This document shows, piece by piece, positions 4,561 through 27,074 of a stretch of DNA of 27,074 nucleotides (positions are counted from its first letter, which is position 1; each line of letters begins with the position of its first letter). This DNA is from Candidatus Bathyarchaeia archaeon (GTDB taxonomy: Archaea; Thermoproteota; Bathyarchaeia; Bathyarchaeales; Bathycorpusculaceae): the NCBI GenBank assembly GCA_038883855.1, contig JAVZLH010000015.1, positions 1 to 27,074 on the forward strand. Reading direction: 5' to 3'. Below the pieces are notes generated by a model that was given only the letters and a program-made list of their open reading frames with translations, searched no databases and was not told the DNA's origin. Position numbers and translations under genes: made by a program.

Positions 4561-4786
4561 CGCTTTTTTGAGCTTTGAGCAATCTTAAAAGCTTTAGTGT
4601 GAGTTTTAATTTGTTTTAATGTTACTCGTTCTCCTGCCTTATAAAACTAGGAAAAGTTCAGTATGCTGGCTGCACACCTTCTATTGTCTCTTTGGTAGGT
4701 TTTAATCTTGGTTGTTTAATCGTGGAAAATAAACATGCTTTTAAGGGAGATCAGCTATCTTTTAAAGGAAGCTTTGAGGTGCTTGA

Positions 4787-5092: not shown

Positions 5093-5107
5093 TTGCGTGG
5101 TAGTTAA

Positions 5108-5905
5108 TTGTCTTTTCGCGAGCATGTTAGGAAAAAACTCCTCAAAGAAGAGAAAGAATATGAAACTGAACAGTTGATGAAGGAAAAACGCAGCGAAGAA
5201 TACGAAGTTCTAGAAGAAGTTTTTGACCGTTCAACGCTTATGGTTATTTATGATTTTATGAATAAGGGCACAATAAGTGAAATTCACGGTGTTGTTAAAG
5301 CTGGAAAAGAATCTCGGGTTTACTGGGGCAAAGATAAAGACGGAAATGAACTGGCAATCAAGATTTACCTAACAGTTTCAGCCGAATTCCGCAAAGGCAT
5401 GTTAAAATACATAGAAGGCGACCCACGGTTTAAAGGCGTTAGACGAGACACGCGCTCATTAATTTTCGCGTGGGCTCAAAAAGAATACAAAAATCTGGAA
5501 CAGGCGATGGCGGCAAAGGTTAGGGTTCCAAAGCCAATAGCCGTGAAAAACAACGTGCTTATAATGCAGTTTATAGGGAAAAACGGTGTTTGCGCTCCCT
5601 CATTGAAAGATAAACCGCCGAAAAATCCGCAGCGCGTCTACAAAACGCTTTTGAGCTATTTGCAGAGGCTTTATCGCAAGGCTGAGCTTGTCCACGGAGA
5701 CATAAGCGAATACAACGTGATGATTTGGAAGGGGCTTCCAGTGCTTTTTGACATGTCGCAAGCTGTTCCGCTATCGCATCCGATGGCTACTTTCCTACTT
5801 TACAGGGATTTAAACAACTTAAACAAGTTTTTTAGTAGGCTCGGTGTTCAAGTTCCTTCAGTAGAGGAATGTTACAGGTTGGTTACTGGCTATGGCGAGA
5901 CCTAG
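5108..5905 (+). CDS. rio1: Rio1 atypical Ser/Thr kinase
   Basis: AGKESRVY, AIKIY, YIEGDPRF, WAQKEYKNL, LVHGDISEYN and FDMSQAV motifs; downstream of aIF1A. Confidence 0.96.
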   Translation: MSFREHVRKKLLKEEKEYETEQLMKEKRSEEYEVLEEVFDRSTLMVIYDFMNKGTISEIHGVVKAGKESRVYWGKDKDGNELAIKIYLTVSAEFRKGMLKYIEGDPRFKGVRRDTRSLIFAWAQKEYKNLEQAMAAKVRVPKPIAVKNNVLIMQFIGKNGVCAPSLKDKPPKNPQRVYKTLLSYLQRLYRKAELVHGDISEYNVMIWKGLPVLFDMSQAVPLSHPMATFLLYRDLNNLNKFFSRLGVQVPSVEECYRLVTGYGET

Positions 5906-6473
5906 CGCATTTCTGAAAATTCCGAAAGAAAGAATCGGCGTCTTAATCGGTCCAGAAGGCGCTGTGAAAAAGAGCATTGAAGAAAAGCTTAAAGTTGAGC
6001 TCCAAATCGACAGCGCCACAGGCGACGTTGCTGTTACGTTGACGGAAAAGGCTGAAGACCCTTCCATGCTTTTCAAAGCCAAAGATGTTGTAACAGCCAT
6101 TGGGAGAGGTTTCTCGCCTGAACATGCCTTCCGCTTAATTCGAGACGAAAATGCCCTTTTGGATGTCGTAGATTTGAGGGATTTCTGTGGAAGATCAGAA
6201 TCAGACATTAAACGCATTAAGGGACGAATAATAGGGATGGATGGAAAAACCCGCCGAATAATTGAAGAGTTAACAGACACTAACGTTGCCGTTTATGGAC
6301 ATACAGTTAGCATAATAGGCGATGTGGAGCAAACGCAAATAGCAAGGGAAGCAATACAAATGCTGATTCGAGGAAGCCAACACAGCACAGTTTACAGATT
6401 CCTTCACAGAAAACGCAGTGAGCTTAAGAAGAGAATGCTAGAATTGTGGGAAAAGCCACCAGAAGAAAGATGA
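5892..6473 (+). CDS. dim2: KH-domain pre-rRNA processing protein (Dim2/Pno1)
   Basis: RIGVLIGPEG, AIGRGFSPE, KGRIIG.DGKTRRIIE and G..HSTVY motifs; conserved aIF1A-Rio1-Dim2 order. Confidence 0.93.
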   Translation: MARPSAFLKIPKERIGVLIGPEGAVKKSIEEKLKVELQIDSATGDVAVTLTEKAEDPSMLFKAKDVVTAIGRGFSPEHAFRLIRDENALLDVVDLRDFCGRSESDIKRIKGRIIGMDGKTRRIIEELTDTNVAVYGHTVSIIGDVEQTQIAREAIQMLIRGSQHSTVYRFLHRKRSELKKRMLELWEKPPEER

Positions 6474-8568: not shown

Positions 8569-9759
8569 GTGTGTTTGCAGCGGTGGTCAGGTAATAGTAA
8601 GTTGGCTCTTTTGGGTGCGGCACACTCGCTTAATCACTCGCTATTTGTTATTGCTCCTACTTTGTTGACTGTAATTATGAGTGATTTGGGTGTTTCTAAG
8701 TTTGTTATTGGCATCATAGCTACTGTTGCGTCTTTTCTTTATGGCGCTGGTGCTTTGGTTGGCGGTCCTCTGGGCGATAGAATCGGCGAGGTTAAAACAA
8801 TAACGATATGTCTGACTTTCTCCGGTTTATCCACGTTACTCATGATTGCTGCAGGAACTACAGGTCAAATTGGCATTTATGCCTTGGCGTTAATTTTAAT
8901 GGCTTTTTGGGCTAGCCTTTACCATCCAACGGCAAACTCGCTAATTTCGAAAACTTTTAAGGGTACGGTTGCTGAAGCGATGGGCTTGCATGGTGTGGGA
9001 GGAACATTAGGCGTTGTTTTAACCCCCACTATAGCATGGTTTATAGGCTCAGTTTTTGGGTGGCCGTGGGCTTTTGTTGTTTTTGGAGCGCTGTGTATAT
9101 TGATTGCTTTGGAGTTTAGAAGGAAAGTGAGTTCTGAGCAAACTCGAAGTGCAGATAAGAACGTTGGGAGTATAATTGACGCGTTAAAAATTCGTGAGTT
9201 ATGGGTGCTCTTGATTTTTAATGTGGTGATAGGGCTTTTCATGAAGGGTATTGAGTTGTTTTTCCCCACATACCTTAAAGAAAACAGAGAGATAGACCCG
9301 ATGTGGGCTTCTGTTGCCTACACCATGGTTTTGGCTGCTGGTGTGCTTGGACAGTGGATTGGGGGAAAAGCTGCAGATAAGCTTGGTCCGAAGAAAGTTT
9401 TGATAGCTACATCAACTGGAGTGTGTATAGGTTTGTTTTCTCTTTTGCTTTTACCAGTTTACGTTGTTGGAATATTACTTTTCATTGTTTTTTATGGCGT
9501 TTCATTTCATGCGCATCAACCAGCATTAAACTCTTTAACAGGGTTTGTTTCACCTCCGAATCAGCGTGGCGCAGTTTATGGCATTTACTTCTTTACATCT
9601 TTTGGGGTAGGTTCGCTTTCGCAGTTTGTGGCAGGTTATGTGGCTGATGTTTACGGTTTAGATGTTGCCTTCTATTTGCTTACAGCGTTTGCTTTTGTTG
9701 CCCTAATATTATCTTTAAAACTTCCGGAAAGAGAAGGTGAACAATTCAAGATGGCATGA
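8569..9759 (+). CDS. MFS transporter
   Basis: About 12 TMs; GPLGDRIG and GKAADKLG motif-A repeats; YHP motif. Confidence 0.93.
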   Translation: MCLQRWSGNSKLALLGAAHSLNHSLFVIAPTLLTVIMSDLGVSKFVIGIIATVASFLYGAGALVGGPLGDRIGEVKTITICLTFSGLSTLLMIAAGTTGQIGIYALALILMAFWASLYHPTANSLISKTFKGTVAEAMGLHGVGGTLGVVLTPTIAWFIGSVFGWPWAFVVFGALCILIALEFRRKVSSEQTRSADKNVGSIIDALKIRELWVLLIFNVVIGLFMKGIELFFPTYLKENREIDPMWASVAYTMVLAAGVLGQWIGGKAADKLGPKKVLIATSTGVCIGLFSLLLLPVYVVGILLFIVFYGVSFHAHQPALNSLTGFVSPPNQRGAVYGIYFFTSFGVGSLSQFVAGYVADVYGLDVAFYLLTAFAFVALILSLKLPEREGEQFKMA

Positions 9760-11701
9760 AAAGGGCTAGAAGTCTGTAGGCCAATCCACCTAAGAGAAGC
9801 GCAAACGCTATATCTATAATAGATATTGCTAATGCTTTTTTCCACCCAAACTCCCGTATGCAAGCAGCTATTGTTGCGATGCATGGAATATAGAGCATTA
9901 TAACTAAAGAAAAGACAATCATTTGCACAGCACTTAAGGATTCTATATTTATGAGTTCTGAAAGCAAAATTAGCGATAATTCTTTGCGTAAAACTCCGAA
10001 TATTAGTGGAATGCCCGTCTCAATTGGAAGCCCAAGCCAGCCGCTTATGATTGGACTTGTGCCATTTGCAATATAAGTTATTAAACCGAGTATGTCAAGT
10101 GCTGCTATTGTGATGCTTCCAGCCACTATTATTGGAAAAGCCATGAAAACGAAATCTCTTGTCCTACTCCAAGTCTTCAGCAAAACACTTTTTGCAGATG
10201 GCTTTTTGTACGGTGGGATCTCCATGATTAAGCCCACTGGTTCTCCAGGTAAGACTTTGAACGCCACTCTGCCTAAAAAGAAAACTATGAGTAAATTAAA
10301 AGCGTAAAGAGCCAGCGCAGCATGTAATCCCACAAACCTGCCAACCAAGCCGAGAATGACAACTGTTCTAGCGGCGCATGGAATCAAGATGACGACGAAT
10401 GCTGCGAGAAAGCGTTCCCGTTCTGTTTCCATGATTCTACAACCGATGCATGCTGGAACACTGCAACCGTAGCCTAAAATTAAGGGTATGAACGCTTTCC
10501 CATGTAATCCTATTTTATGCATTAAGTTATCCATCAAAAATGCAGCGCGTGGAAGATAACCGCTATCTTCAAGAAGCGCTAGCAATATGTAAAATGGCAC
10601 AATGTATGGCAAAGCGATTGTTATTCCTGCAACTATGCCGAATAAAACTCCTCTGACAATTAGGGCGACAGTAATTTCAGGAAGTAAAGAAGTCAAGCCG
10701 CTTTCAACGTACGCAATAAAAATGTTAAAAACGTAATCTAGACCTGCGGAAATGAAGTTTCCACCGATAAAAATTAAAGTAAACATTGATGCTAAAACAA
10801 TAGCTAAAAACGTGTACCCCAAAATTTTATGAGTAGTTAAAGCGTCAAGTTTCTGCTCTAAACTTATTTTTGGAGGAGCCTCAATTATCGTTGATGCTTT
10901 GGCTATTTTATTTGCAAGACTGTATCTCTCAGACGCGATTACAACTGGTGAAGGTTCTCCATGAATCTCCTCAAGTTCTTTAGCCATTTTCTCCGCGTAT
11001 CTTAGGATTTCTTCTCCGTTCTCATAGTTTTTTAGGTTACTAGAAACTTCTGCGTCCCTTTCCAAAAGTTTAATTGCAATCCACCTTGCAGGGTAAACTG
11101 TGCTGAGTTCTTTAAGTTTAGATTTGATAAGTTTCTCGATTATTTGGACTCTTTTTTCAATTTCTTTTCCATATCTAACCTTTAATGGCTTAAGTTCAAT
11201 CTCCCCATTTATCACAGCAATGACCGTTGAAAGAAGTTCGTTTACTCCGCTTCCTGTAATTGCCACTGTAGGAACAACAGGTAACCCCAAAATTTCAGAA
11301 AGTTTCTTTACATCGATTTTTATACCCTTTTTTGCTGCGAAGTCAACTTGGTTTAAATCGATTATTATTGGAGCTTCAAGCTCTAAAAGCTGAAGTGTGA
11401 AGTATAGATTGCGTTCCAGCGCCGAAGCGTCTACGACGTTAACGATTATGTCGGGTTTCTCAACAGCGATATAATTACGTGAAACGATCTCCTCCATGGA
11501 GAACGTAGACAACGAGTATATTCCAGGCAAATCAATTACGCGAATTTTGTAACCTTTAAAGTGTAGCGTTCCCTCAGCCCTTTCCACAGTTTTCCCAGGC
11601 CAGTTTCCAACAATTTGGTTTAAGCCTGTAAGCTGGTTAAATATGGCGCTTTTTCCAACGTTTGCGTTTCCAGCCAATGCAATTCGTAACTGTTTAGCCA
11701 T
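9746..11701 (-). CDS. feoB: Ferrous iron transporter FeoB
   Basis: GNANVGKS, GNWPGKTVE, DLPGIYSL, LEDSGYLPR, GYGCSVPA and YIPCIAT motifs. Confidence 0.97.
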   Translation of the reverse strand: MAKQLRIALAGNANVGKSAIFNQLTGLNQIVGNWPGKTVERAEGTLHFKGYKIRVIDLPGIYSLSTFSMEEIVSRNYIAVEKPDIIVNVVDASALERNLYFTLQLLELEAPIIIDLNQVDFAAKKGIKIDVKKLSEILGLPVVPTVAITGSGVNELLSTVIAVINGEIELKPLKVRYGKEIEKRVQIIEKLIKSKLKELSTVYPARWIAIKLLERDAEVSSNLKNYENGEEILRYAEKMAKELEEIHGEPSPVVIASERYSLANKIAKASTIIEAPPKISLEQKLDALTTHKILGYTFLAIVLASMFTLIFIGGNFISAGLDYVFNIFIAYVESGLTSLLPEITVALIVRGVLFGIVAGITIALPYIVPFYILLALLEDSGYLPRAAFLMDNLMHKIGLHGKAFIPLILGYGCSVPACIGCRIMETERERFLAAFVVILIPCAARTVVILGLVGRFVGLHAALALYAFNLLIVFFLGRVAFKVLPGEPVGLIMEIPPYKKPSAKSVLLKTWSRTRDFVFMAFPIIVAGSITIAALDILGLITYIANGTSPIISGWLGLPIETGIPLIFGVLRKELSLILLSELINIESLSAVQMIVFSLVIMLYIPCIATIAACIREFGWKKALAISIIDIAFALLLGGLAYRLLALFMPS

Positions 11702-12003
11702 TAGAGGGCATCCTTTAATGGTTTTACAAAAACTTTTGAAGCTACGCCGTGACCGAGAGCAAGAGTTACACCTCTAACCTCAATTTCTACCGGTCCGCTG
11801 AAAAGTCCTTTCCTCAACACCTTTACTTCTACGCCTGGTGTTAATCCCATTTCTGCTAGTCTGCGTAGTAGTCCAAATCCGCCGACAGCATGTGAGACTA
11901 TGCCTTTTTCGCCTTCGTTTAGATTTATGATGGAGACTGCTTCATTTCTGTTTTCGATTTTAGTTTCTGGCTTTTTTCCTCTGTGCCTAAATTGCATGTG
12001 CAT
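11701..12003 (-). CDS. feoA: Ferrous iron transport protein FeoA
   Basis: RRLAEMGLTPGVEVKV...GPVEIEVRG..LALG SH3-like pattern; GGGAGAG before ATG 12003; stop overlaps the feoB start. Confidence 0.93.
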   Translation of the reverse strand: MHMQFRHRGKKPETKIENRNEAVSIINLNEGEKGIVSHAVGGFGLLRRLAEMGLTPGVEVKVLRKGLFSGPVEIEVRGVTLALGHGVASKVFVKPLKDAL

Positions 12004-12676
12004 CTCTCCCTGGGATTTTGACCCAAATGTTTGCGGCATCCTCGTAACTTAAGGTACATTCTTTACCAGAAACGCATATAACAAGTTTTGAGCGCAGACG
12101 CTTCACAATGTAGATTGGTGCGTCAGGCTTTATTCCTTTGCTTGCTAACAGAACAAGTTTCTCTCTTTTTTCGTTTGTTATTTTTGATATTCTGCCAGTT
12201 TCGCCAAGAGGCATTTGTGTCAGTAGCTGACATTTTTCCTCCTCTAACACGCCTTCCTCTGATGGTATGGGATTTCCATGCGGGCAAAACTTCGGATTTT
12301 CCAAACGCTTTTCCAAAAGTTGTATCACTTCCTTTGTTAGGGCATGTTCAAGCCTACATGCGCTTTCGTGGACATCACACCAGTCGGCGTTTAAAATATC
12401 TGTTAAAAGTTTCTCGGCAAGTCTATGCCTCCTAACGATGTCTAAGGCGAGTTTTTCACCTTTTGCGGTGAGCCTAACACCTCTGTAAGGCTTGTGTTCA
12501 ACCAAACCATGTTTTTCCAGATGTGTAATTGTGTTCGTAATGGAACCATGTGCAACTTTTAGTTCGTCTGCTAACTCCTTTGTTTTAGCGATGCCGCTGC
12601 GTTTCTGGAGCTTGTATATTGCTTCAATATACTCTTCTGCCTCGTAAGATACTTCCGCTGTCAAAGGAAACACCAA
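11987..12676 (-). CDS. DtxR/IdeR family metal-dependent repressor with C-terminal FeoA domain
   Basis: EEYIEAIYKL wHTH, RRHRLAE, ACRLEH (DtxR-like Cys/Glu/His metal ligands) and CPHGNPIP. Start may be TTG 12664. Confidence 0.93.
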   Translation of the reverse strand: MVFPLTAEVSYEAEEYIEAIYKLQKRSGIAKTKELADELKVAHGSITNTITHLEKHGLVEHKPYRGVRLTAKGEKLALDIVRRHRLAEKLLTDILNADWCDVHESACRLEHALTKEVIQLLEKRLENPKFCPHGNPIPSEEGVLEEEKCQLLTQMPLGETGRISKITNEKREKLVLLASKGIKPDAPIYIVKRLRSKLVICVSGKECTLSYEDAANIWVKIPGRDAHAI

Positions 12677-13355: not shown

Positions 13356-13769
13356 TCACTCGCCTATCACCTGGATTGTTATGGTTCTTCTTCTTGGATG
13401 TACATCTGTCTCAACAAAGAGCAGGGACTGCCATGTCCCAAATTCTATTCGCCCGTCAATTACTGGCAATGTTTTGTCTGGTGGTAGAAGCACAGACCTC
13501 AGATGAGCGTGGGCGTTAGATGGATGCATGTAAATACCGTCTCTAGGAACAAGCTTTTCCAACAAAGCCTTAACGTCATTCAATAAGCCGTATTCGCTTT
13601 CTGTTAGTATTAAAATGCCAGTTGCATGCGGAGCGAAAACATGGACTATGCCGTTTTTTATTCCAGATTTTGAAACCACTTCCTGAACTTTGTCGGTTAA
13701 GTCTACAAATTCAATTTCGCCCTTTGTGGAAAAGCTATAGGTTGCATTGTAAACTTTAAAGTCTGGCAA
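13356..13769 (-). CDS. yjbQ: YjbQ/UPF0047 family protein
   Basis: DLTDKV, PHATG, NAHAHLRS, GTWQSLLFVETD and RRR motifs; GAGGTGA RBS before TTG. Confidence 0.93.
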   Translation of the reverse strand: MPDFKVYNATYSFSTKGEIEFVDLTDKVQEVVSKSGIKNGIVHVFAPHATGILILTESEYGLLNDVKALLEKLVPRDGIYMHPSNAHAHLRSVLLPPDKTLPVIDGRIEFGTWQSLLFVETDVHPRRRTITIQVIGE

Positions 13770-13840
13770 GCCTTTTCACCTCCCTCGTTATTTCAGCATT
13801 TTTGTAATTATGTAGTCGCTGTCTTTGAAAAACCTTTTTT

Positions 13841-14181
13841 GATTTCGCCCAACCTCGGCAAACCCATTGTCTTATAGAGGTTTATGGCGTCTTCTTCTAT
13901 TTCAGTTCATATACCTCTTCACTATTTCAGAGTTAGCCACTCCAAGTCCATCAACATCGGCGGCTACAGAAAACTTCGCCTTTTTCTTGGAGGCTAAGAA
14001 TCTGAAAGCCATTCCACTTCCTCTTCCTTAGAAACTTTCTCAGCTTTAATGATGTTCGCGCTTTCACCAACAGGCGAATTGATAAAATCCAGCAAATCGT
14101 CTAAGTCCCCCGCTTGAGAGTTCTCAAAACCACTTGCGGCAATTCTTGACAACAAACTCCACGATAGCATTGGGGCCACAT
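13841..14181 (-). pseudogene. Decayed GNAT N-acetyltransferase relic (frameshifts, stops, internal deletion)
   Basis: Pieces in shifting frames: IVEFVVKNCRK / VVLRTLKRG / DLDDLLDFINS...EKVSKEEEVEWLS* / EKGEVF / VAADVDG.GVANSEI / AINLYKTMG / FAEVGR. The central acetyl-CoA motif A is missing. Boundaries approximate. Confidence 0.7.
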
Positions 14182-14212
14182 AACCTTTTTCAAAAGGGCT
14201 GAAACTGGTGAG

Positions 14213-14275
14213 TTTTGTTGATGCTTTTGTATACGGAGTCCGCATAATTCCCTCCGGTGAATTCTGGTGACACAT
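14213..14275 (+). repeat. Left copy of 63-bp inverted repeat (partner 17564-17626)
   Basis: ttttgttgatgcttttgtatacggagtccgcataattccctccggtgaattctggtgacacat; 60/63 identical to the reverse complement of the right copy, first 42 bp identical. Confidence 0.95.
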
Positions 14276-14457
14276 TAAGAAATATGTAATACCAACTTTA
14301 CTGGAATCACCAAAAAGTGAATTTTTGACGTCAAAAGTTTGAAAATGTGAGCCACCTAGCCTATAAGAAGCAAGACAAGTTTGCTTACCCATGCAAAATA
14401 AGCCAGCAAAAAGCCCATTTCCAATTCGCAAAAGTCCCGTGGTGAAAACCTAAAATC

Positions 14458-14646
14458 CTAGTTGTTAGGGTTTCTTCTTGTTTTCCAGCGCTCATAAACG
14501 ATCACGCTTAATGGGATAAGGAAGCCGAGAAACAAAAACAGAGCCACCGCCGACTGACCCATTGCAACAAACTCAAGGATGAGGAAAATCCAGCATGCTG
14601 CAGTCAATAATAGGATTGCCTTCGCGAAACGGCCTATGAATCCCAT
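14458..14646 (-). CDS. Small two-TM membrane protein, unknown function
   Basis: 62 aa with ATG start, two hydrophobic helices and a basic C-terminal tail. Confidence 0.6.
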   Translation of the reverse strand: MGFIGRFAKAILLLTAACWIFLILEFVAMGQSAVALFLFLGFLIPLSVIVYERWKTRRNPNN

Positions 14647-15192
14647 TAGGTGTAACCAATAGAATGAACTGTAAACAGTGTATTAAAAGTTGCGATACAC
14701 AGCTATTAATTACGGCTTCAACTTGTGTAAACAATCTAGCCACCGCAAAAGTCTAAGTCAGTCACACCACGAAATTTTTCGAAGTATTTACGAATTATGT
14801 TGGTTTTTGTTTGGCATGGAGATTTTCGACAGTTTCCTTTATGAAGCCACGGTTAACTCCATGCTTGCTGTTTGATGGCTGATTTAAAAAGGCTGAAAAG
14901 AGCCTCTTTTGAATTTCTCGGCTTAAAAATAGCTTTTTGTTTTTATGCTTGCTGATGAAACTTTTCACGGTTTCCGGGCTATTGGCATACGATGGAAAAC
15001 AACCAAATAAAATGCCTTTAGTTGTAAAAGAGAGGATTAAATTGGTTTCTATTTTTATTTGAGTTTTTCGAAAGAATATCGCTAATAGGGCGTGATTGGT
15101 TGCTGTTGCTGGTATTTTTATTTTTTTCATATATCCATTTTGAAATAACGTCTTTAATTGTTCACTGTGGTTGTTTTGGTAGAGAGGTAAAG

Positions 15193-17445
15193 GTGCCACA
15201 CTTGACCACCGACCATTTTGGAGAAGGCGTCGAAGTATTCGAGAGAAGCGTAAATGGACGAAAGGTCAGGGTTAAGTGGGACTGGGGCAAGTTCAAAAGC
15301 ACAGAGGGTTTCCCGGTTGACGATAACTTGATAAACTGGGTTATAGGACAGGAACAAGCCTTAAAAGAATGTTTCCTCTGCTTAGACGAGTGGGTTCACA
15401 AACTCAAATGGCTTGAAAAAACTAAATGGTATGAAAGCTGGAGCCACCTAGACAAGCCTAAGCCTTCGGCAAAAACAGTCATAAGCCCTGGACCATACCT
15501 CTTGCTTTTGGGAGACCCTGGAACAGGCAAGTCTCTTATTGGGAGGGCTCTTGCAGAAAAGCTTACGCAGGTTTACAAGGAAAATGGCATAAAGCTTTTT
15601 GATGTTTTATGCTGGAAGAATTCAGCGTTGCCAAGCCAGCCTAAAATCTCAATTCATAAAGCTGGAGAAGGAAAGAAAATCCTGCAAATAGAGCAGCTTA
15701 AAGAACTTAAGAGGAAGTTTGTGACCAAAGTAGGGCTTAAGGCGCTGCAAATCTTCCTAATTTTGATGGGTCTGCTTCTTATGTACTTAGGCTTCTATTT
15801 CATGTATCAAGCGTGGCAGATATGGAACGCCAATCCAACGTATTTTGGAGAACCACTCCAAGAATACTACAACAATAACTTTGTAGATTATATTATAGGA
15901 AAGTTTGTTGGCTTAGTCCCAATAACCTTCATTCCAGGCGGGAGCCTAATTTTCTTCGGAGTCTTCATATGGTGGTTCTCGAGGCTCGGCGGACTAGGCA
16001 ATTTGAAGGGCATTGGGGGGGCTCAACAAACGGATGTTCCGAAACTTTTGGTTGATAACAGTTCTGAGCGTTCGCCTTTTGTAGACGCCACTGGGCATAG
16101 AAGCGCTCAACTTTTTGGTTCAATAGCATGGGACCCTTATCAGACTGGTGGTTTGGGCACTCCTGAGCATCAGCGGGTTACCGCTGGAGATGTCCACATT
16201 GCGTCTCTTGGCATTCTATATATTGATGAGATAAAGAACCTTGACCAAGAAGAAGCAATAACGTTGCTAACGGTTCTTGAGGAAGGACAACTGCCCATAA
16301 CTTTGCGAGGACGCTGGCATGGAGGAGACACTGCTGCAATGGCTGTTTCAACAGAACCCGTTCCAGCCATAACCTTTCTGGTCGGTGCTGGAAACTTTGA
16401 CAGCATAAGCCAAATCCACCCAGCCTTGATGGACCGCATTTACGGATATGGCAAAGTTGTGAGAATGAATAATGACATGCCTAACACTTTGGAGAACAGG
16501 CGAAAGTATGTGCAGTTCATAGCGCAGGAGGTTAAACGCTTTAACCTTATCCACTTCAGTATGGAGGCGTGTCAAGAAATAGTGGAGGAGGGAAGACGGA
16601 GAAGCAACAAAAGAGACGCTTTAACAACGAGGTTTAGACCCCTAATTTCCATTATAAAGACGGCTGCAACCCTTGCCATGAACGAGGGATGCAAGGTTGT
16701 TGAGAGGCGTCATGTTAAAGAAGCCATCGAACATCACTGCAAGACTATTCAGAGGCAAATTCTTGAGCATGAAATGAACGAGAGGGGGAAGCTGCTTGAA
16801 ATCAAGCCGGAAGGAGCCAAACTTGGACAGATTCACGGCTTAGCGGTTGTTAGAGACCCGTACAGCGGCGAGATGACTGGAAGCGTCTTATGCGTTAGAG
16901 CCTATATGGCTAAGAAAAACGAACTTCCAAGAAACTATCCCTTTAAGGGCTATTACAAAGTGACTGGTGTAGCCAAGGGGCAAAGCTTCATCGCAGACAG
17001 CATAGCCAAAGTTAGAAGCGTAATACTGCAAAAATACGGGATTGACATAGCCCAAGACTATTTGACGCATATTGACTTCGCCCAGTCCTATGGAGTTGAC
17101 GGCCCATCGGCGGGCGTAACAATGGCCATTCTATTATGCTCGCTGATTGAGGGAAAACTCATAAGGCAGGATGTTGCTGTAACCGGCGAAATAAACCTAG
17201 GCGTAGGAAACTCCATACAAGTGACTGCTGTAGGCGGGGTTTACGAGAAAATTAAGGCTGCGGAAGCTTGGGGCTTTAAAAAAGTTGTTATTCCTCAAAA
17301 GAATTATGAGCATTCTATAGATGTCAGAGATTACAAGATTGAGGTTGTTCCAGCAGCGACATTAGATGATTATTTGAAGGAGTGCCTTGTTGAGAGGCCA
17401 GCCATTAAAGTTTGGACCCAAGCGTTTAAACGCAGGAAATCTTAG
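15193..17445 (+). CDS. lonB: Membrane-anchored ATP-dependent Lon protease (LonB architecture)
   Basis: VIGQEQA, Walker A GDPGTGKS, two-TM insertion, PFVDATG, LFG....DPYQTGGLGTPEHQRV, Walker B LYIDEI, HPALMDRI.GYG, catalytic DGPSAG and GGVYEK. GAGGT RBS before GTG 15193; the ORF-track start at 15100 is likely too long. Confidence 0.95.
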   Translation: MPHLTTDHFGEGVEVFERSVNGRKVRVKWDWGKFKSTEGFPVDDNLINWVIGQEQALKECFLCLDEWVHKLKWLEKTKWYESWSHLDKPKPSAKTVISPGPYLLLLGDPGTGKSLIGRALAEKLTQVYKENGIKLFDVLCWKNSALPSQPKISIHKAGEGKKILQIEQLKELKRKFVTKVGLKALQIFLILMGLLLMYLGFYFMYQAWQIWNANPTYFGEPLQEYYNNNFVDYIIGKFVGLVPITFIPGGSLIFFGVFIWWFSRLGGLGNLKGIGGAQQTDVPKLLVDNSSERSPFVDATGHRSAQLFGSIAWDPYQTGGLGTPEHQRVTAGDVHIASLGILYIDEIKNLDQEEAITLLTVLEEGQLPITLRGRWHGGDTAAMAVSTEPVPAITFLVGAGNFDSISQIHPALMDRIYGYGKVVRMNNDMPNTLENRRKYVQFIAQEVKRFNLIHFSMEACQEIVEEGRRRSNKRDALTTRFRPLISIIKTAATLAMNEGCKVVERRHVKEAIEHHCKTIQRQILEHEMNERGKLLEIKPEGAKLGQIHGLAVVRDPYSGEMTGSVLCVRAYMAKKNELPRNYPFKGYYKVTGVAKGQSFIADSIAKVRSVILQKYGIDIAQDYLTHIDFAQSYGVDGPSAGVTMAILLCSLIEGKLIRQDVAVTGEINLGVGNSIQVTAVGGVYEKIKAAEAWGFKKVVIPQKNYEHSIDVRDYKIEVVPAATLDDYLKECLVERPAIKVWTQAFKRRKS

Positions 17446-17563
17446 ACAAAGGCTTCTTCACACCTTTCTTCCTCTAGGCTAAACGTTTAACATTTTCGTT
17501 TTTTCTAGCGTAAATCAACCAAGTTTAGTGGGTTGGGTAATTTCGGTATTACTAAGCAAAGTT

Positions 17564-17626
17564 ATGTTTCACCAAAATTCACCAGAGGGAATTATGCGGA
17601 CTCCGTATACAAAAGCATCAACAAAA
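17564..17626 (-). repeat. Right copy of 63-bp inverted repeat (partner 14213-14275)
   Basis: atgtttcaccaaaattcaccagagggaattatgcggactccgtatacaaaagcatcaacaaaa; 3 mismatches to the left copy. Confidence 0.95.
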
Positions 17627-17717
17627 ACCCTAAATCTGCTGCAAAACTGGAAAGGGGAGAAAGTTATTATGCATTCCACTTCCTACATACTGTGTTTACC
17701 GGTGGAGTGCAAGGATT

Positions 17718-18155
17718 ATGGTTAGAGAAGTTGACAAAGATGAAATTCGCCGATGGCGCAAAAGAGGGTTCTACAGCGAAAACGTACTTGTCAAACTTCT
17801 CGGGAAATACGGTTACAAAGCGGTGCGCGTCCCCGTTAGCAACCCAAGCCTAAACCCGCTTCCAGACGTAATAGCAAGAAAAGAAGCACACATCTACGCT
17901 TTTGAAGTTAAAAACGCCAGTTACTACGCTTATTTTCCTAAACAACAAATGGAGAAACTCTTCAGGTTTCTAGAGGAACTTATCCCCTTGGACAAGGAGT
18001 ATAAGCACGCTGTCCTCGCGGCTCACCTAGGCAAGAGATGGATTTTCAAAGAAATTTCCTGGAAGGAATGGGAAAAGGGCAGTCTTCCTGAAAAGGCAAG
18101 AATTCTAAAAAGGGATAGAGGAAACTTCAACCCGCAACAAAGGGGTCTAACTTAG
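17718..18155 (+). CDS. Holliday junction resolvase-like PD-(D/E)xK nuclease (Hjc/Hje family)
   Basis: RKRGFYSENVLVKLL...GY..VR, PDVIA, AFEVK and QMEKL..F match the Hjc pattern. Confidence 0.78.
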   Translation: MVREVDKDEIRRWRKRGFYSENVLVKLLGKYGYKAVRVPVSNPSLNPLPDVIARKEAHIYAFEVKNASYYAYFPKQQMEKLFRFLEELIPLDKEYKHAVLAAHLGKRWIFKEISWKEWEKGSLPEKARILKRDRGNFNPQQRGLT

Positions 18156-18843
18156 ATGAAGGGTACGAATTTTGCAGTTCTTGCTTCCAGTTTACGCAAA
18201 GAATATGAAGTTGGAGACATAAAGATCGAAGCACTAAAAAACGTGAATCTTGAAATCAAAAATGGCGAGTTTGCGGCCGTAAGCGGTCCTTCTGGTTCTG
18301 GAAAAACGTCGCTCTTAAATATTATCGGAGGAATTGACAAGCCCACAAGCGGTAAAATCTTCGTTTTCGGAGAAGATTTGGGCGTCAAAGATGAGGATTT
18401 TTTGGCAGAGTTCAGATGCAAAAAGTCGGGTTCGTCTTCCAATCCTACAATCTCATCTCCACGTTAACGGTTGCGGAAAACATAGCCTTCCCAATGGAGT
18501 GGACGCGGAAGTCGGAGGAACAAATAACAAAGCGGGTTGAGGAACTGCTGGAACTTGTAGGTTTACAGCACAGAGCAAATCATTTTCCATCGCAGCTCAG
18601 CGGCGGCGAACAGCAACATGTGGCCTTTGCAAGGGCGCTGGCAAACGACCCCATCTACTTTTAGCTGATGAACCAACGGGAAACCTTGATGCAAAAATAA
18701 GTCAGAAGATTGTTGAAATACTCATTAAGTTAAAAGACGTTGGAAAAACAGTTATTGTTGCAACTCATGATGCTCAGATAATTCAGTTGGCGAATAAAAA
18801 GTTGCTTTTGGAAGATGGTAGGCTGGTTAGCCTAAATGAGTGA
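18156..18843 (+). pseudogene. ABC exporter ATP-binding subunit (LolD/MacB type) with two frameshifts
   Basis: GPSGSGKT; shift at the A5 run 18420-18424 into VGFVFQSYNL...LSGGEQQH; second shift at about 18655 into LADEPTGNLD...VATHD...LEDGRL; stop TGA 18841-18843. Confidence 0.88.
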
Positions 18844-20688
18844 AACCTTTTTCCAGTAAACGATTTGCTGCGGAGGAAATTGCAGACAAGCCTCGCCATA
18901 ATCAGCTTAACATTATGTGTAGCATCAAGCACTTTTCTATTTTTTTGGAGAAAAACTGGGGTTCGGAATTTTCACGAGAACAGAAAACATATTGACGGCG
19001 AGTTTTTCAAAAATTTTCTTACAATTCATGTACTTCATAGGAGCCTTAATTTTCATTGTTGGAGTTGTAATTGTTTCCTTTACGGCTTTTGTCATGATGT
19101 CTCAACGAACCAGAGATATTGGTTTAATGAAGGCAGCTGGATGCCCCAACAACCTCATTTTCGGCTATTTCCTAACCGAACTCTTAATAATGGCTTTTCT
19201 CAGCTGCCTCTTCGGCGTGCTCCTTGGAGTTTTAGCTGATTTTGCTTCAGCAAGCTTGCTGGGCAATTTTGGAACGCAAGTGCCCCAAACATTAGTTGAT
19301 GTTTGGCTTCTTGTTCAGGTCTTCCTGCTGTTTTTTGTTCTTGCAATGATTTTCGGCTTGAAACCAGTTCTTGACGCAACAAAAATCGAGCCGGCCAAAA
19401 CCATCTCGCCAACACAATATTTCGGGTTAACGAAAGCTCCAGAGTTTAAGGCGATTAAAAAGAGTTTGGTGGTTAAGATTGCCTCGAGAAGTTTGTTTCG
19501 CCGCAAGTCGGCAACAATTCGAATAGTTCTTTGCCTAACCGTGGTTTTCATTTTAGCAACGATTACTATCACAGGCGGAATAATCGCCGACCAAACCACG
19601 AAGAACTGGGTTGAAAAGGCTGTTGGCAGAGACACGTTGCTCATTGGACATCGTGAAGTATGCAGCCAGTACAAGCTTCTTTTATCAAAATTTTATGAAA
19701 ACAAGGCGGTTCCGCAGTTTACTTACACTGATGAAAAGTATTTGATGCCCTAAACTCTTCTAAACAAGCTAAGCCTAATGCATGAAAACATAACCATCGA
19801 ACAAAGGCTAATTTTGCAAGCGCACGTTAAAGAAGTTCAAGGCTACATCCTTAGCGAAACGACTGGCGGAACCAGAGAGGTTAGTGATAACCGAGAAGGC
19901 GAATCAATAATAGTCGGCGTTGAACCAGAAAGGGTCTTAAACGAATGGTTTTATGAAGGAAAATTTCTAGGAAACAATGGGGCTTATGAAGCGTTCATTG
20001 GGGACTCTCTAGCTGAAAAATGTTTGAATTACCGCTATACCAGAAAATAATGCTTTTTAACACAAGCCTAAAAATAGTCGGCGTCTGTCTAGACCCGATA
20101 AACAACGGAAATATAACATATATTCCTCTAAAAACCTTACAGACCATAACTGGAATCCCTAAACCAAATCTCCTCATGGCAAAAATAACATCAGCTAACC
20201 GCACAGAAGTTCTGAACAATTTATTAGAGATTGTGAAAGACGCAAACTCCGACTTTGAAGTTGCCGAACTCAACGAAATATTAAACGAAAATTTGGGTTT
20301 TTTGGGCTTTATTTGGTATGCAATAATGTTTCTGCCTATATTCTCTCTGACATCAGCGGCTCTATGTTTGACAGGCTACGTGATGCTAACCATCACTGAA
20401 CAGAAACAGGAATTTGGAATTTTGAGGGTTTTGGGAGCTAAACAAAAAACCGTTTTAAGCATAGTCGCCCTGCAAAGCCTAATAGTTTTGCTTTCAAGCT
20501 ACGCCGTTGGAATAGAACTGGGCGTAATCATAACTTTGCTAATTCTGATTCCAGAGCCTGTGGTCACAAGCTTCACTATCATACAGATAACAGGATGGCT
20601 CTTAAGCGCATTGACCATCATCTTCACCTTCAGCCTTTACCCAAGCATAAGATTCATGAAAAAGCCGTTGAGGGAATTAATCTCCTAA
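18836..20688 (+). pseudogene. ABC exporter permease (FtsX/MacB type, two permease repeats), disrupted
   Basis: ATG 18836 overlaps the ATPase end; frameshifts at about 18850, 18945 (T7) and 20018 (A5); in-frame TAA 19751-19753. Motifs RTRDIGLMKAAG and QEFGILRVLGA. Confidence 0.85.
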
Positions 20689-22238: not shown

Positions 22239-22283
22239 TTATATATTTGTTTAACGGCGTTAAATATGTTTAACGCCGTTAAA
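22239..22283. promoter_or_regulatory. TATA box followed by tandem palindromic operator pair
   Basis: TTATATAT (22239-22246), then TTTAACGGCGTTAAA (22250-22264), TATG, and TTTAACGCCGTTAAA (22269-22283). Confidence 0.8.
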
Positions 22284-22292
22284 GGAATCAAA

Positions 22293-24026
22293 ATGATCCA
22301 AACAGAAATAAAACTCGCCGACCTAGACGTGCTGCGACCACATGAAGAAGTCGACCGCGAACATCTGAAAGAACTCACACAAAAGATAGCCTCAGACAAA
22401 ATTCTGAAATTCGCAATAGTTGCAGACAAAAACACAAATGTGGTGCTTGACGGTGAACACCGTTTCAGCGCCTTGAAAAGTTTGGGATGCAAAAAGATTC
22501 CTGTGGTTTACGTGGATTATAACTCACCTGATATAGTGGTGCAAAGTTGGAGAGATAACCAGAAGGTAACGAAAAAAGATGTTATAGAAGCAGGTTTAAG
22601 CGGCAAACAGCTTCCGGCAAAAACAAGCAGACATATGGTGAAGGTGAACGGGGATTTGGCGCACATTTTTGTGCTTGAAAAAAGAGTTGACATTCCAATT
22701 GAAGTGTTAAAAAGTGAACCTCAACTGGTAGACATAAAAAGCGTTAAGCCAGCGATGCAAGAAGATTTTAAGGAAGTCTTACAGCTTTACTCTAAAATCC
22801 TGGACTCCAATATTGTTGAGAATCCGCTAATAATAGACAAGGGAACGCACATTTTATTGGATGGTTATGAAACTTATTATGCACTTAAACTTCTATCCGC
22901 GAACAAAGTGCCAGTCTTCACAGTTGACATCTCAAAAGTGGAAATAAGATCACTGCAAAACGGTCTCAGTACAATTACAAAGGAAAAGGTAATAGAAGCT
23001 GGGCTTAATGGACCAAAACTTCCTCCAAAAAGCTTTAAGGTGTTGAATGAGCCTATTCAAATAAGTGTCTCTCTAAAGGATCTGCTTGCACAAAAAGATG
23101 AGCGCAAAAATAACTTAAAAGTTTACAACAGCACGTTAGAACTGCTTTTTGAAGGGTGGCCAACCCCACTGGTAAAGTTAAATTCGGTTTCAAATGATAA
23201 ACTGAGCGTTTGGGCTAAGCTGGAAGGATACAACCCATTCAGCAACAGCGTTAAGGATAGGATTGGCTTTTCCATGATTATGGAAGCAAAAGAAAGGGGA
23301 AACCTGAAGGAAATATTGTATGAAGCTACTTCCACAAACACTGGAATAGCCCTAACATCCATAGCAAACATTTTGGGAGTGAAGACGAAACTCTACATAC
23401 CGAAAACAATACAAAAAGTAAGCGACATATACCTTGAGGTTTTAGGCGCCGAGGTTGTGAGGCTTCCAGTGGGCTTAACCGTAGAAGCCATTGGACAAGT
23501 GGAAAAAGAAGCGAAAAAGGACGGAGCTGCCCATTTAAACCAGTTTGAAAACGACGCAAACTTCAAAATACATTTGAAGCATACCGCAAGAGAAATTGAC
23601 GAGCAACTGGAAAGTTTAGATTTAAAGCCCTCATGCATAATAGGCGGTTTGGGAACATCAGGGCACATGAGCGCCATATCTTTCTATTTCAAGAACAAGT
23701 ACAAAAACAACATTAAAATAGTCGGGGTTCAACCAGCACCAAACGAGGTTATTCCAGGAATAAGAAGAGTAGAGACGGGGATGAAATGGTATCATTGGGT
23801 CCACTTCGACAAAATCATTAACGTTACACAGAGGGAAGCCATAGAAGGCGCCATTCAAATCGCGAGAAAAGAGGGCATTCTAGTTGGGTTAAGCGCTGGT
23901 GCAGTTTTCAGCGCGTTCAACAAAATCAAGGAAGAAGAGGGAGTCTGCGTGCTAGTTTTTCCAGACACTGGTTACAAGTATGCAGAACAGTTTGAAAACT
24001 ACTTTGCAAATGCAGCAGAAAAGTAA
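22293..24026 (+). CDS. Fusion: SerK/SbnI-like ParB-fold serine kinase + degenerate second ParB/SerK repeat + PLP-dependent O-phosphoserine sulfhydrylase (CysO/CysK family)
   Basis: Domain 1: PHE, LDGEHR, VDY...SW, LPAKTSRH. Domain 2 repeats LDG...ITKEKVIEAGL.GP.LPPK without PHE/HR. Domain 3: PTPLV, KLEGYNPFSNSVKDR, NQF.NDANF..H..TAREI, LGTSGHMSA, IPGIRRVETGM. ATG 22293 is preferred because ATG 22266 lies inside the operator. Confidence 0.88.
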   Translation: MIQTEIKLADLDVLRPHEEVDREHLKELTQKIASDKILKFAIVADKNTNVVLDGEHRFSALKSLGCKKIPVVYVDYNSPDIVVQSWRDNQKVTKKDVIEAGLSGKQLPAKTSRHMVKVNGDLAHIFVLEKRVDIPIEVLKSEPQLVDIKSVKPAMQEDFKEVLQLYSKILDSNIVENPLIIDKGTHILLDGYETYYALKLLSANKVPVFTVDISKVEIRSLQNGLSTITKEKVIEAGLNGPKLPPKSFKVLNEPIQISVSLKDLLAQKDERKNNLKVYNSTLELLFEGWPTPLVKLNSVSNDKLSVWAKLEGYNPFSNSVKDRIGFSMIMEAKERGNLKEILYEATSTNTGIALTSIANILGVKTKLYIPKTIQKVSDIYLEVLGAEVVRLPVGLTVEAIGQVEKEAKKDGAAHLNQFENDANFKIHLKHTAREIDEQLESLDLKPSCIIGGLGTSGHMSAISFYFKNKYKNNIKIVGVQPAPNEVIPGIRRVETGMKWYHWVHFDKIINVTQREAIEGAIQIARKEGILVGLSAGAVFSAFNKIKEEEGVCVLVFPDTGYKYAEQFENYFANAAEK

Positions 24027-25289: not shown

Positions 25290-26585
25290 ATGTTTGAGAA
25301 ATACATTTCGAAAACTCCAAAGTCAAAAGCTCTCTACGAACGCGCAAAAAAGGTTCTCCCAGCTGGAGTCTCTTATGGATTGAGATATTTTGAGCCTTAC
25401 CCATTCTACACGGCTAGGGCTAAGGGCAGTAAACTTTTTGACGTAGATGAAAACGAATACGTGGACTTCTGGCTTGGACATACAGCCCTCATACTGGGGC
25501 ATAGCCCACCCGCAGTTGTTGAGGCTGCTAAGAGGCAATTGGAAAGGGGCACCCACTATGGAACAGCCCACGAACTCGAAATCGAACTAGCTGAGCAAGT
25601 TGCAAAAATGGTTCCAAACGCCGAAATGATTCGCTTCACCAATTCTGGCACAGAAGCAAACATGTACGCCACGCGATTAGCCCGCGCATACACGGGAAGA
25701 AACAAAGTCGCCAAGTTTGAAGGCGGGTGGCACGGAGGCTATGATGCACTCCACGTAAGCGTAAAACACCCCTTCAACATTCCAGAATCCGCTGGCTTAA
25801 CACGCGGAGCACTCCAAGACACCATAGTTTTACCGTTCAACAACCTCGATGGAGTTAAGGCAAAACTGAAAGGCGAAGAGGTTGCAGCCATCTTCATAGA
25901 ACCAGTTTTGGGCTCAGGCGGGGCTGTTCCAGCTGAAAAGGAATTTTTGAAAGGACTTAGGGAATTCTGCGACTAAAAAGAAATTCTTCTAATATTTGAT
26001 GAAGTTATAACTGGCTTCAGATTGGCTCCCGGGGGAGCTCAACAATATTATGGTGTAAAATCGGACATAACAGTTTTAGGAAAAATATTGGGCGGAGGCT
26101 TTCCCATAGGCGCCTTTTGCGGACGCAAAGAAATAATGGAGCGGTTAGATACTACTGTTTACAAGAGGCCCCATTACTCTTTTCACGGTGGAACCTTCGC
26201 TGCAAACCCAATAACGATGACCGCTGGGTTAGCAACACTTAAGATTCTGGAAGATGGGCAGCAGATAAATCAATTGAATAAGCTCGGAGATAAAATAAGA
26301 GAACAAATCAGGGAGATTTTTGAAGCTGCTGGTTTGGATGCGCAGGTTACGGGCGCAAGTTCCCTGTTTAGCGTGCATTTTACAAGGGAAGAAGTGAAGG
26401 ATGCGTATTCCGCGTTTACGGCTGACAGAGAAAAACTTGTAGATTACCATTTAACGCTTATTGAAAATGGAGTTTTCTTCTTGCCAACTCACGCTGGAGC
26501 CTTAAGCGTCGCTCATTCTAAGGCTGACATAGAAAAACTGTTTTTGGAAACAGAAAAATACGCTAAGAAATGCAAAACAGCCTAA
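25290..26585 (+). pseudogene. hemL: Glutamate-1-semialdehyde 2,1-aminomutase-like class III aminotransferase, split by one in-frame TAA (25974-25976)
   Basis: ILGHS, RFTNSGTEA, KFEGGWHG, EPV, then C-D-*-K-E-ILLIFDEVITGFR continuing in frame to LGKILGGGFPIGA and GTFAANP. Confidence 0.85.
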
Positions 26586-27074
26586 GGCCGGAGTCTCCCA
26601 AATTCATTTTTCAGAATTTGTTCCGCCCTTTTAAGATCCATGGGCGTGTTTACGTTAAAGAACGTCATAAGCTTAGGGTCTATTTGCTGCAGCACAAGCG
26701 TGGAAACATAACGCACTCCGCGAAGCTTCTCGATCATTGAAAGCATGTTCAGTTTTCCCTCGCTTAAAGCGCTTTTTGCAGCCTTAAGCGCGGTTTCTGT
26801 GCAATAAACAGCCGGTAAAGGTTCTATGTAGCTGTTTGGCCAACGTGGGATAACTGCACTTTTATTTTTGCATAGTTCAAGCAAAAGTGAGATGACCTCT
26901 TTGGAAATGAAGGGTGTGTCGCATGGAAGAAGAAACGAATACTTTGCGCGGGTATTTTCAAAACCTGTTAGTGCTCCCACAAGGGGGCTCTGCACAGGGC
27001 TTACATCAACCAAAACCCGCACATCCGAACCCACAATTTTCAAGTAGTTTTCTGCTTGAGTCTTTGAACTGACA
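26582..27074 (-). CDS. mobA: Molybdenum cofactor guanylyltransferase (5' end outside the window)
   Basis: SPLVGALTG, LPCDTPFI, IEPL.AVY and FFNVNTP.DL motifs; frame open to the window edge. Confidence 0.88.
   Translation of the reverse strand, partial: VSSKTQAENYLKIVGSDVRVLVDVSPVQSPLVGALTGFENTRAKYSFLLPCDTPFISKEVISLLLELCKNKSAVIPRWPNSYIEPLPAVYCTETALKAAKSALSEGKLNMLSMIEKLRGVRYVSTLVLQQIDPKLMTFFNVNTPMDLKRAEQILKNEFGRLRP

Follow-up and report, generated by a model that had tools for sequence, protein, structure and literature searches.

The 27,074-nucleotide contig JAVZLH010000015.1 (C15) of the Candidatus Bathyarchaeia archaeon assembly GCA_038883855.1 (G000; 1.11 Mb in 24 contigs, 85% complete), which was analyzed over its entire length and is called the window below, carries a gene for the archaeal membrane-bound Lon protease, lonB, that is enclosed by a pair of inverted repeats. 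The two arms are 63 nucleotides long, match at 60 of 63 positions in inverted orientation (95% complementary) and lie 3288 nucleotides apart (Table 1). A repeat search, pairwise alignment and resampling bear out what a preceding sequence-only reading had reported of them, namely a near-perfect inverted repeat of 63 base pairs with a 42-base-pair core, a sharp outer edge and a homology that decays inward. Identity begins abruptly at the outer edge, and the three mismatches all fall in the inner third of the arm, at 14255, 14264 and 14271 on the left and 17584, 17575 and 17568 on the right. At 42 nucleotides, the core is the longest exact inverted match of the window, versus 14 to 18 nucleotides in 30 first-order Markov resamples, and the inverted repeat around lonB is confirmed as a real and non-random feature.

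The outer end of each arm is formed by a near-invariant 18-mer, GTTGATGCTTYTGTATAC, here called m1. With this motif begins a conserved non-coding element, about 150 to 165 nucleotides long, that is found in Bathyarchaeia, and each arm is the outermost part of one such element. We favor, with somewhat better than even confidence, the interpretation that the arms are two inward-facing copies of this element, that they have undergone gene conversion and have been prone to inversion over evolution, and that they do not delimit a mobile cassette. Inward of the arms the homology is patchy and extends over about 150 nucleotides per arm. It includes a GTAATACC block at 14286-14293 (+) and 17545-17552 (-), whose presence inside each arm had been pointed out before, and a TAGCCTA box at 14357-14363 (+) and 17475-17481 (-). 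The order of parts in the left element is m1, a variable segment, CCGGTGAA/CTGGTGA boxes, GTAATACC, CACCA boxes, an A-rich stretch and TAGCCTA.

The repeat encloses lonB and a small hydrophobic open reading frame (ORF), as described earlier, but the spacer that had been called AT-rich is not notably so, with a GC fraction of 0.407 at 14001-15000 versus 0.35-0.47 elsewhere in the window at 1-kb resolution. Relatives of the 62-amino-acid ORF were seen only in genomes of the same genus, with 61-77% identity in the loci L023 and L022. For lonB, the coordinates given are those of the longest ORF; in 79 of 80 loci the alignment with the relative begins between residues 1 and 57, and the true start is probably further downstream than 15100. 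Both of the outside neighbors named in the sequence-only reading are present. To the left, the intact 182-amino-acid GNAT protein of L028 and L038 matches the window only in fragments (14107-14003, 13988-13917 and 13865-13791 by tblastn), which confirms the gene relic, and in those two loci the intact gene starts 63 nucleotides outside m1. To the right, the Hjc-like resolvase gene begins at about the distance stated. A tRNA (transfer RNA) scan of the window found none.

Table 1. Coordinates of the repeat arms, their parts and the surrounding genes in the window
Feature	Position	Strand	Remarks
Left arm	14213..14275	+	reads inward, toward lonB; 60/63 match to right arm
Right arm	17564..17626	-	reads inward, toward lonB 3′ end
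Left m1 core, GTTGATGCTTTTGTATAC	14217..14234	+	0 mismatches
Right m1 core	17605..17622	-	0 mismatches
Left long-form element	14213..14363	+	outer half of the conserved ~290-nt unit
Right long-form element	17475..17626	-	box order as left; end 30 nt from lonB stop codon
Gene-conversion tract, minimal	14237..14270	+	right-arm-type variable segment within left arm
Decayed inner m1 of the unit, approximate place	14464..14492	-	alignment with G010 unit and L028/L038
62-aa hydrophobic ORF (small membrane gene)	14458..14646	-	hydropathy
Conserved element upstream of lonB	14779..14863	+	TCGAAG-N6-CGAA ... GCATGGAGATTTTCG ... TCCATG
lonB (archaeal membrane-bound Lon protease)	15100..17445	+	Pfam Lon_C 8.5e-20, LonB_AAA-LID 2e-10
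GNAT acetyltransferase relic	13791..14107	-	tblastn
UPF0047 (YjbQ-like), left outside neighbor	13356..13769	-	Pfam 9.7e-33
hjc (Holliday junction resolvase), right outside neighbor	17718..18155	+	Pfam 4.4e-13; 91 nt from right arm

Distribution and arrangement of the m1 element

The comparison took in 62 genomes and 80 lonB loci. A 121-nucleotide query from the left arm has a match at E<=1 in 36 of the 41 genomes of the family and order, the window's own genome included (27 of the 30 of high quality), and the matches fall almost always on the outer 25 to 30 nucleotides. In 201 distinct copies, only the 18 m1 positions have a high information content, with a weaker signal at -15 to -1 (TTTT/GTG/A-rich) and at +18/+19 (GG), and these copies show no TATA-like enrichment at a fixed distance upstream of m1. 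When at most two mismatches are allowed, 2 to 8 copies are found per genome, versus 0 to 2 for a reversed-pattern control (G010, 3; G015, 2; G004, 8; G024, 6; G040, 8; G023, 3; G021, 2; G041, 5; G042, 6; G044, 4). These copies are clustered: all 8 of G004 fit within 14 kb, all 6 of G024 within 12 kb, and 4 of the 5 in the closed genome G041 within 69 kb. The clusters lie almost always around the lonB/Hjc/UPF0047 neighborhood. A check of the copy number of the arm had been proposed earlier; there is indeed a repeat family in the related genomes, but the window's own genome holds only two copies, with no further arm or m1 copy beyond the two arms.

A long form accounts for 86 of 205 copies, both window arms among them. 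It consists of m1, a variable segment of 20 to 35 nucleotides, CTGGAGA/CTGGTGA, ACAT-AAAA, GTAATACC, two CACCA boxes, an A-rich stretch and TAGCCTAC. No 15-mer of m1, in either orientation, occurs in the papers searched, and we found no prior description of the motif family, judging by titles and abstracts.

A convergent pair of m1 copies within 4.2 kb is present in 66 of the 80 lonB loci. The remaining 14, most of which are truncated, comprise 7 with a single copy or another arrangement and 7 without m1. The two members of a pair lie either about 270 nucleotides apart upstream of lonB or one on each side of the gene. The former case constitutes a unit of about 290 nucleotides, composed of a long-form m1 and an inverted short m1 with one order of boxes, which precedes lonB in 54 of 80 loci. 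A TTAGCCTA box is conserved at 14357-14363 and 17475-17481 of the window and at the center of the unit in those 54 loci; it resembles what we take to be the center of the DtxR/IdeR ‘iron box’. A DtxR-FeoA-FeoB cluster lies directly left of UPF0047, at 9746-12676.

With lonB set on the plus strand, three arrangements are seen. The commonest is UPF0047(-) m+ m- LonB Hjc(+), and a second, UPF0047(-) m+ LonB m- Hjc(+), is that of the window, G001, G002, L034, L035, L041 and L089; the third is Hjc(-) m+ m- LonB m- UPF0047(+). The left arm of the window aligns with the outer half of the G010 unit, and the inner copy has decayed in the window's genus, so that the facing pair is kept across lonB and not before it. 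The inner m1 is no longer recognizable, as evident by the fact that the best 18-mer match in 14281-15100 reaches 13 of 18 positions and lies elsewhere than the place indicated by alignment.

Among 79 scorable lonB loci, 77 have the gene in its usual neighborhood. The gene has also left this neighborhood in some lineages: in G018 (L026, C14) lonB is missing between Hjc and UPF0047 and the m1 copies are still there, and in G040 (L114/L115) it lies about 0.8 Mb from the main m1 cluster.

Another conserved element (14779-14863) is situated inside the repeat-bounded segment. It recurs in 54 lonB loci besides the window, about 290 to 630 nucleotides before the LonB match in loci with full flanks, and is conserved at the nucleotide level without codon periodicity. 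There is no covariation, and its 5-base-pair stem is invariant, so that structure cannot be judged from it. The element may be the lonB promoter or leader. A conserved small protein between the unit and lonB was also considered and rejected, as an all-versus-all blastp comparison of 613 ORFs of at least 40 amino acids returned only overlapping-frame and antisense artefacts, with the one exception of a cluster caused by this same nucleotide-level element. In L059 and L091 an extra m1 copy is found directly upstream of an element of this type.

Gene conversion and inversion between facing copies

Two sister genomes, G001 and G002 (L023/L022), reveal how the arms came to resemble each other. Their left and right arms share only about 25 nucleotides around m1 together with the TGGTGA.ACAT and GTAATACC boxes, and their left and right variable segments are unrelated, as are those of L038 and L028. 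The right arm of the window resembles the right arms of both sisters. The left arm, however, carries a variable segment of the right-arm type and then, at ACAT, returns to the left-arm type of G001 and G002. The simplest account is a recent gene conversion in the window lineage, by which a tract of 34 to 65 nucleotides passed from the right arm to the left. Conversion between diverged arms explains the near-identity over 63 nucleotides, the sharp outer edge and the inward decay alike, the edge being sharp because the outer flanks were never homologous. The scar of a duplication-inversion, which the sequence-only reading had offered as one source of the repeat, is not needed, given two elements that predate the species and had already diverged, with an identity that stems from a recent, short conversion. 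Since the window, G001 and G002 agree in gene order and lonB orientation, the window is not mis-assembled.

The comparison of lonB orientation and neighbors among relatives, also proposed earlier, reveals that both orientations exist. Within the frame set by UPF0047 and Hjc, lonB points one way in 62 loci and the window and the other way in 15, with 2 loci that could not be classified. A LonB tree of 80 rows (quick IQ-TREE) requires three changes of orientation, two of which are forced by starred branches, and none of 500 label shuffles gave as few; the orientation classes are therefore strongly clustered on the tree. One breakpoint can be placed in L048 and L072, which are sisters with support 100*. 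Their sequences stay homologous from lonB as far as m1, beyond which the Hjc flank of L072 corresponds to the opposite lonB side of L048; the change of flank falls within m1 plus about 12 nucleotides. At a smaller scale, 50 of 54 units have their 235-nucleotide interior forward; it is ambiguous in L077 and reversed in L075, L079 and L104, which belong to two separate parts of the LonB tree. As judged from these alignments, inverted m1 copies are endpoints of recombination at two size scales in evolution, and the orientation of lonB and of the unit evidently follows phylogeny. The idea that the arms are the sites of an inversion switch fares accordingly: copies of the motif have repeatedly been inversion endpoints in evolution, but orientation is clade-stable and the window holds no recombinase. 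For the lonB segment, ‘inversion-prone’ is supported and ‘switch’ is not.

The favored course of events is as follows. Both elements are older than this species, the arms of its sisters being alike only in m1 and a few short boxes. Non-crossover recombination, or gene conversion, copied the 34 to 65 nucleotides from the right arm to the left, and crossovers between inverted m1 copies have flipped the lonB segment and the 235-nucleotide unit interior several times in the family. It seems likely that such exchanges represent ordinary recombination between short conserved inverted repeats, rare and then fixed, and no programmed switch. The lonB gene keeps the 14779-14863 element inside the segment upon inversion, and would work in either orientation because this upstream element of its own lies there.

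Evidence from reads was drawn from hot-spring metagenome runs in the form of Logan contigs (four runs), which are assembled from 31-mers. One X2 contig (641 nucleotides, depth 7) joins 14696..14213 to 17627..17783, which is the junction expected from an inversion. However, this contig is not diagnostic, because the arms share 42 exact nucleotides and words shorter than 43 nucleotides cannot link a flank to the inner variants. It may be a path artefact, perhaps the only path left through the 42-nucleotide exact repeat. No bridging contig for the reference junctions is among those listed for X1 and X2; X1 contigs end and start at 14225/14226, and X2 is without cover at 17475-17625, but such holes prove nothing. 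Loose ends of related strains also occur in X1 and X2, such as a G002-type left arm at 14236.

Programmed site-specific inversion, in which m1 would be the site of a dedicated recombinase, facing pairs would be invertible and the extra copies would form a shufflon-like array, we consider unlikely. Convergent pairs persist in the 66 loci even where one copy has been lost and another replaces it, and inversions at two scales have their endpoints in m1, but orientation tracks phylogeny, as evident by units that are mostly forward, reversed units that include one clade, and identical arrangements in the window, G001 and G002. The unit is inverton-like in size, with repeats of about 20 to 25 nucleotides around 235 nucleotides and between divergent genes, and m1 equals recombinase sites in the strictness of its conservation; yet m1 reads without the internal dyad symmetry of the dif/hix kind, and many copies are single and stand upstream of genes. 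Gene order and orientation of m1-bounded blocks vary between genera, and a tyrosine integrase gene is located between m1 copies in G019 (L112). Purified Sulfolobus Xer inverts DNA between inverted dif sites in vitro (PMC3020120), which also counts for a recombinase. Against one, no recombinase is found among the 40 scanned ORFs of the window, and the window's own genome, at 85% completeness, has no PF00589 match above the cut-off (best E = 9e-5). The single X2 contig with an inverted junction cannot separate the two orientations. If m1 were such a site, this would be an archaeal inverton or shufflon located opposite the origin on the chromosome, and continuing exchange would have left its traces in the 63-nucleotide identity and in the X2 junction contig.

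In L112 (G019:C6), the region 3081-6310 holds a Phage_integr_3/Phage_integrase gene between two same-strand m1 copies, with a third m1 1.4 kb further on, by KH/RIO genes. Relatives carry 7 to 12 PF00589 matches, several of them 6 to 40 kb from m1 clusters.

Possible roles of m1

Our best guess is that m1 is most likely a protein-binding DNA site. This reading, which is weak, follows from the observation that m1 keeps no reading frame, shows no RNA fold and lies near start codons in either orientation. More specifically, and only tentatively, since we hold it at somewhat less than even confidence, m1 could be an operator or upstream activating site common to the outward-facing GNAT-UPF0047 and hjc-ABC operons and to other operons of the neighborhood. 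The inverted repeat of the window would then be one control element serving the two outward-facing operons that flank lonB. The copies are intergenic and, whichever way they point, precede start codons by 30 to 115 nucleotides. Of 73 long-form copies, 53 have a divergent gene start no more than 150 nucleotides away (median 78 nucleotides). Single short copies lie in sense orientation 30 to 110 nucleotides upstream of Nnr-Tsr3, LysE-Macro, NERD and other genes, and further copies are antisense upstream of GDH, ABC, AsnC-type and MobA-like genes. A TATA-like GCTTATCTTTTA follows m1 in all three of the Nnr-upstream copies displayed.

Several points weigh against the favored reading in one or another of its parts. 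Most transcription-factor sites are less strictly kept than this motif, which is identical at 18 out of 18 positions across an order. No start of an ORF of at least 100 amino acids lies nearer to the unit's inner copies than about 330 to 480 nucleotides, so that not every m1 copy can be promoter-proximal. The window's genus has lost m1 upstream of Nnr-Tsr3 and kept the genes, and no m1-binding protein was identified. With regard to recombination, the direction of gene conversion is based on two sister genomes only, the X2 contig leaves room for polymorphic or active inversion, and an inversion of 235 nucleotides between repeats of only about 20 to 25 nucleotides would more typically come from site-specific recombination than from the homologous kind.

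An alternative to which we give little credence is that the arms are two small RNA genes or conserved 5′ leaders, transcribed toward lonB, the left one sense and upstream, the right one antisense and into the 3′ end. Long-form copies are discrete, oriented and about 150 to 165 nucleotides long, and some point at the 3′ end of a convergent gene with no protein gene to serve. However, an RNAalifold analysis of 83 long-form copies gave a trivial helix of 4 base pairs on the plus strand and none on the minus strand, with neither a consensus fold nor covariation, and Rfam has nothing at gathering score in the window and, at E<=1 over L001, L002, L025 and L026, only a tRNA. Purine-rich sequence and GTG/ATG often precede m1, but the 201 copies lack the fixed-distance TATA-like enrichment upstream. 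Short single copies are sense and 30 to 110 nucleotides upstream of the Nnr, LysE and NERD starts, although m1 in general lies near gene starts on either side, whatever its direction.

Three related candidates were also considered and set aside. A C/D-box small RNA, suggested by the UGAUG-like start of m1, was rejected by eye since there are no D or C′ boxes. The frame of a small leader ORF (M-x-FVDAFVY...W*) is not kept between copies. A protein-coding repeat fails as well, given that the inward frame stays open over no more than about 30 codons and that start-like triplets are in different frames between copies. The ORFs in the arms have no Pfam match, and GTAATACC is read in different frames.

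We regard as very improbable the proposal that m1 is an element of the chromosome terminus, either a polar fork barrier of the Ter/Tus or RTP kind or a terminus organizer. In that case the facing pair would form a minimal trap for replication forks, and stalling at it would drive the conversions and inversions. It derives mainly from map positions. In the closed genome G041 (2,172,046 nucleotides) the best Cdc6 match is at 2,100.8 kb, with its antipode at 1,014.8 kb, and four perfect m1 copies are at 1,020.6, 1,020.9, 1,030.4 and 1,089.6 kb. In the single-contig genome G040 (2,152,572 nucleotides) Cdc6 is at 113.6 kb, its antipode at 1,189.8 kb and four m1 copies at 1,171.3-1,207.7 kb, so that the cluster is offset from the antipode by 0.3-3.4% (G041) and 0.9% (G040) of genome length. 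In G010, whose genome measures about 1.6 Mb, some 780 kb separate Cdc6 from m1, and in the window's own genome a canonical origin would lie elsewhere, with three ORB-like (origin recognition box) sequences by cdc6 on contig C1. Synteny among the genomes means, however, that these antipode positions are not independent. In addition, each genome has a second Cdc6 gene, G040 has further m1 copies at 301, 394, 400 and 1,903 kb, and G015 departs from the pattern, with Cdc6 at 562 kb of an 869-kb contig and m1 at 460 kb.

The same proposal draws on GC skew, sampled at 40 x 20 kb in each of G041 and G040. The best half-genome split in G041 is at 2,101/1,015 kb, but the signal is weak (p = 0.043 for the a priori split and 0.31 when rotation is allowed for; p = 0.36 in G040), and gene-strand bias in G041 has no clear pattern. 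Although m1 is oriented, non-palindromic and kept in facing pairs, its copies do not form two opposed groups, and orientations are mixed or alternating within clusters. It also counts against a terminus role that replication termination in Sulfolobus occurs by fork collision without a trap (PMC3020120).

The opposite possibility, m1 as a replication origin, was rejected, since m1 is without the ORB consensus and is not adjacent to orc1/cdc6. The distance between Cdc6 genes and m1 clusters ranges from 100 kb to over 1 Mb in G010, G040, G041 and G015, and in G000 Cdc6 is on another contig. That contig, C1, has an ORB-like TTTCCAGTGGAAATTCGGGGGT and two variants with 4 mismatches at 26439, 26615 and 26859, in mixed orientation and with A/T-rich spacers. 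They lie directly upstream of the only Cdc6_C gene found (C1:25139-25420, minus strand), and the stretch at about 26,430-26,880 is probably a canonical replication origin.

The reading of the 3.4-kb segment as a mobilized cassette, a non-autonomous transposon or composite element whose terminal inverted repeats would be the arms, is close to refuted: the repeats do have a sharp outer edge, and m1 matches do lie near contig ends in several fragmented assemblies, but the outer flanks ...CTGGTGAG and ACCCTAAA... share no direct repeat that could be a target-site duplication, the same locus is occupied in G001, G002 and G010, the sisters have the same arrangement with arms alike over only about 25 nucleotides, the own genome has just the two copies, the cargo, a housekeeping gene, is single-copy and has a conserved neighborhood, and 2 exact m1 matches in 2.9 million viral contigs (IMG/VR) are at chance level by our rough estimate (a few expected). 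The sequence-only reading was correct in seeing no target-site duplication and no transposase or recombinase gene, as none of the 40 scanned ORFs of the window matches such families, and its notion of a dispersed repeat family holds for m1, which is a conserved multi-copy motif, but not for the 3.4-kb segment, which is not mobile.

Other features of the window and comparison with known systems

Several genes elsewhere in the window are broken. An ABC ATPase is split over two frames (18156-18467 and 18416-18664) and corresponds to a single 237-amino-acid ORF in L025, an FtsX permease is in pieces (18865-20688), and a class-III aminotransferase (25290-26585) is split at 25976/26022. These and the GNAT relic reflect either genome decay or errors in the sequence of this metagenome-assembled genome (MAG). 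At 22266-24026 (+), a 586-amino-acid protein joins a ParB_N-like domain (4.5e-7) to a pyridoxal phosphate (PLP)-dependent PALP domain (1.2e-47). The contig ends inside a MobA-like gene (26582-27074). Because a MobA-like gene, along with a ParA-like one, adjoins an m1 copy in G004 and G012, the assembly may break near a site where relatives carry another m1 copy.

The cis-acting DNA signals of uncultured Bathyarchaeia are almost wholly undescribed. What appeared to be a one-off repeat is now a defined element, with an 18-nucleotide motif found across an order, confined to one neighborhood, set in facing pairs by lonB and repeatedly serving as an endpoint of inversion and conversion. Any protein that binds m1 would constitute a new archaeal DNA-protein system, whether it acts in regulation, in recombination or as a fork barrier. 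More generally, near-perfect inverted repeats in MAGs can stem from local gene conversion between old, diverged elements, and neither mobile DNA nor mis-assembly is necessarily their source.

Among known systems, inverted ribosomal RNA (rRNA) operons, insertion sequence (IS) copies and repetitive extragenic palindromic (REP)-type repeats in bacteria undergo inversion and gene conversion. The m1 elements are like these in that inverted copies exchange, with non-crossover events that homogenize, crossovers that invert, and outcomes that are rare and fixed per lineage. They are unlike them in that the repeat is only 18 to 25 nucleotides long (63 after conversion), is no gene or mobile element, and keeps to a single neighborhood of the chromosome. 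Invertons and other site-specific switches include fimS/FimBE, hix/Hin and the R64 shufflon sfx/Rci. Here the likeness consists of short inverted repeats that bound a segment of a few hundred nucleotides (the unit) or a few kilobases, several sites per locus, and both orientations among relatives; the differences are that no recombinase is adjacent, orientation is clade-stable, no population heterogeneity is demonstrated and inversion does not visibly uncouple lonB from a promoter.

Bacterial fork traps, namely Ter/Tus of E. coli and the TerI/TerII inverted repeat adjoining rtp in B. subtilis, also employ oriented, non-palindromic sites of about 20 nucleotides, several of them opposite the origin, with an innermost pair that is inverted and close. 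In contrast, m1 is not sorted into opposed groups, has no Tus or RTP candidate and receives weak support from skew, and we know of no archaeal fork trap. ORB origins are characterized by a TCCA.TGGAAA dyad and a G-string. The unit is similar to these in that an A-rich stretch of about 235 nucleotides, flanked by two conserved boxes in inverted orientation, lies between divergent genes, but m1 is not ORB-like, ORB-like boxes stand by cdc6 on another contig, and Cdc6 is far from m1 in five genomes. Finally, the arms share with miniature inverted-repeat transposable elements their form as terminal inverted repeats with a sharp outer boundary, and differ from them in lacking a target duplication, in enclosing 3.4 kb with a housekeeping cargo, in being syntenic across genera and in having two copies only.

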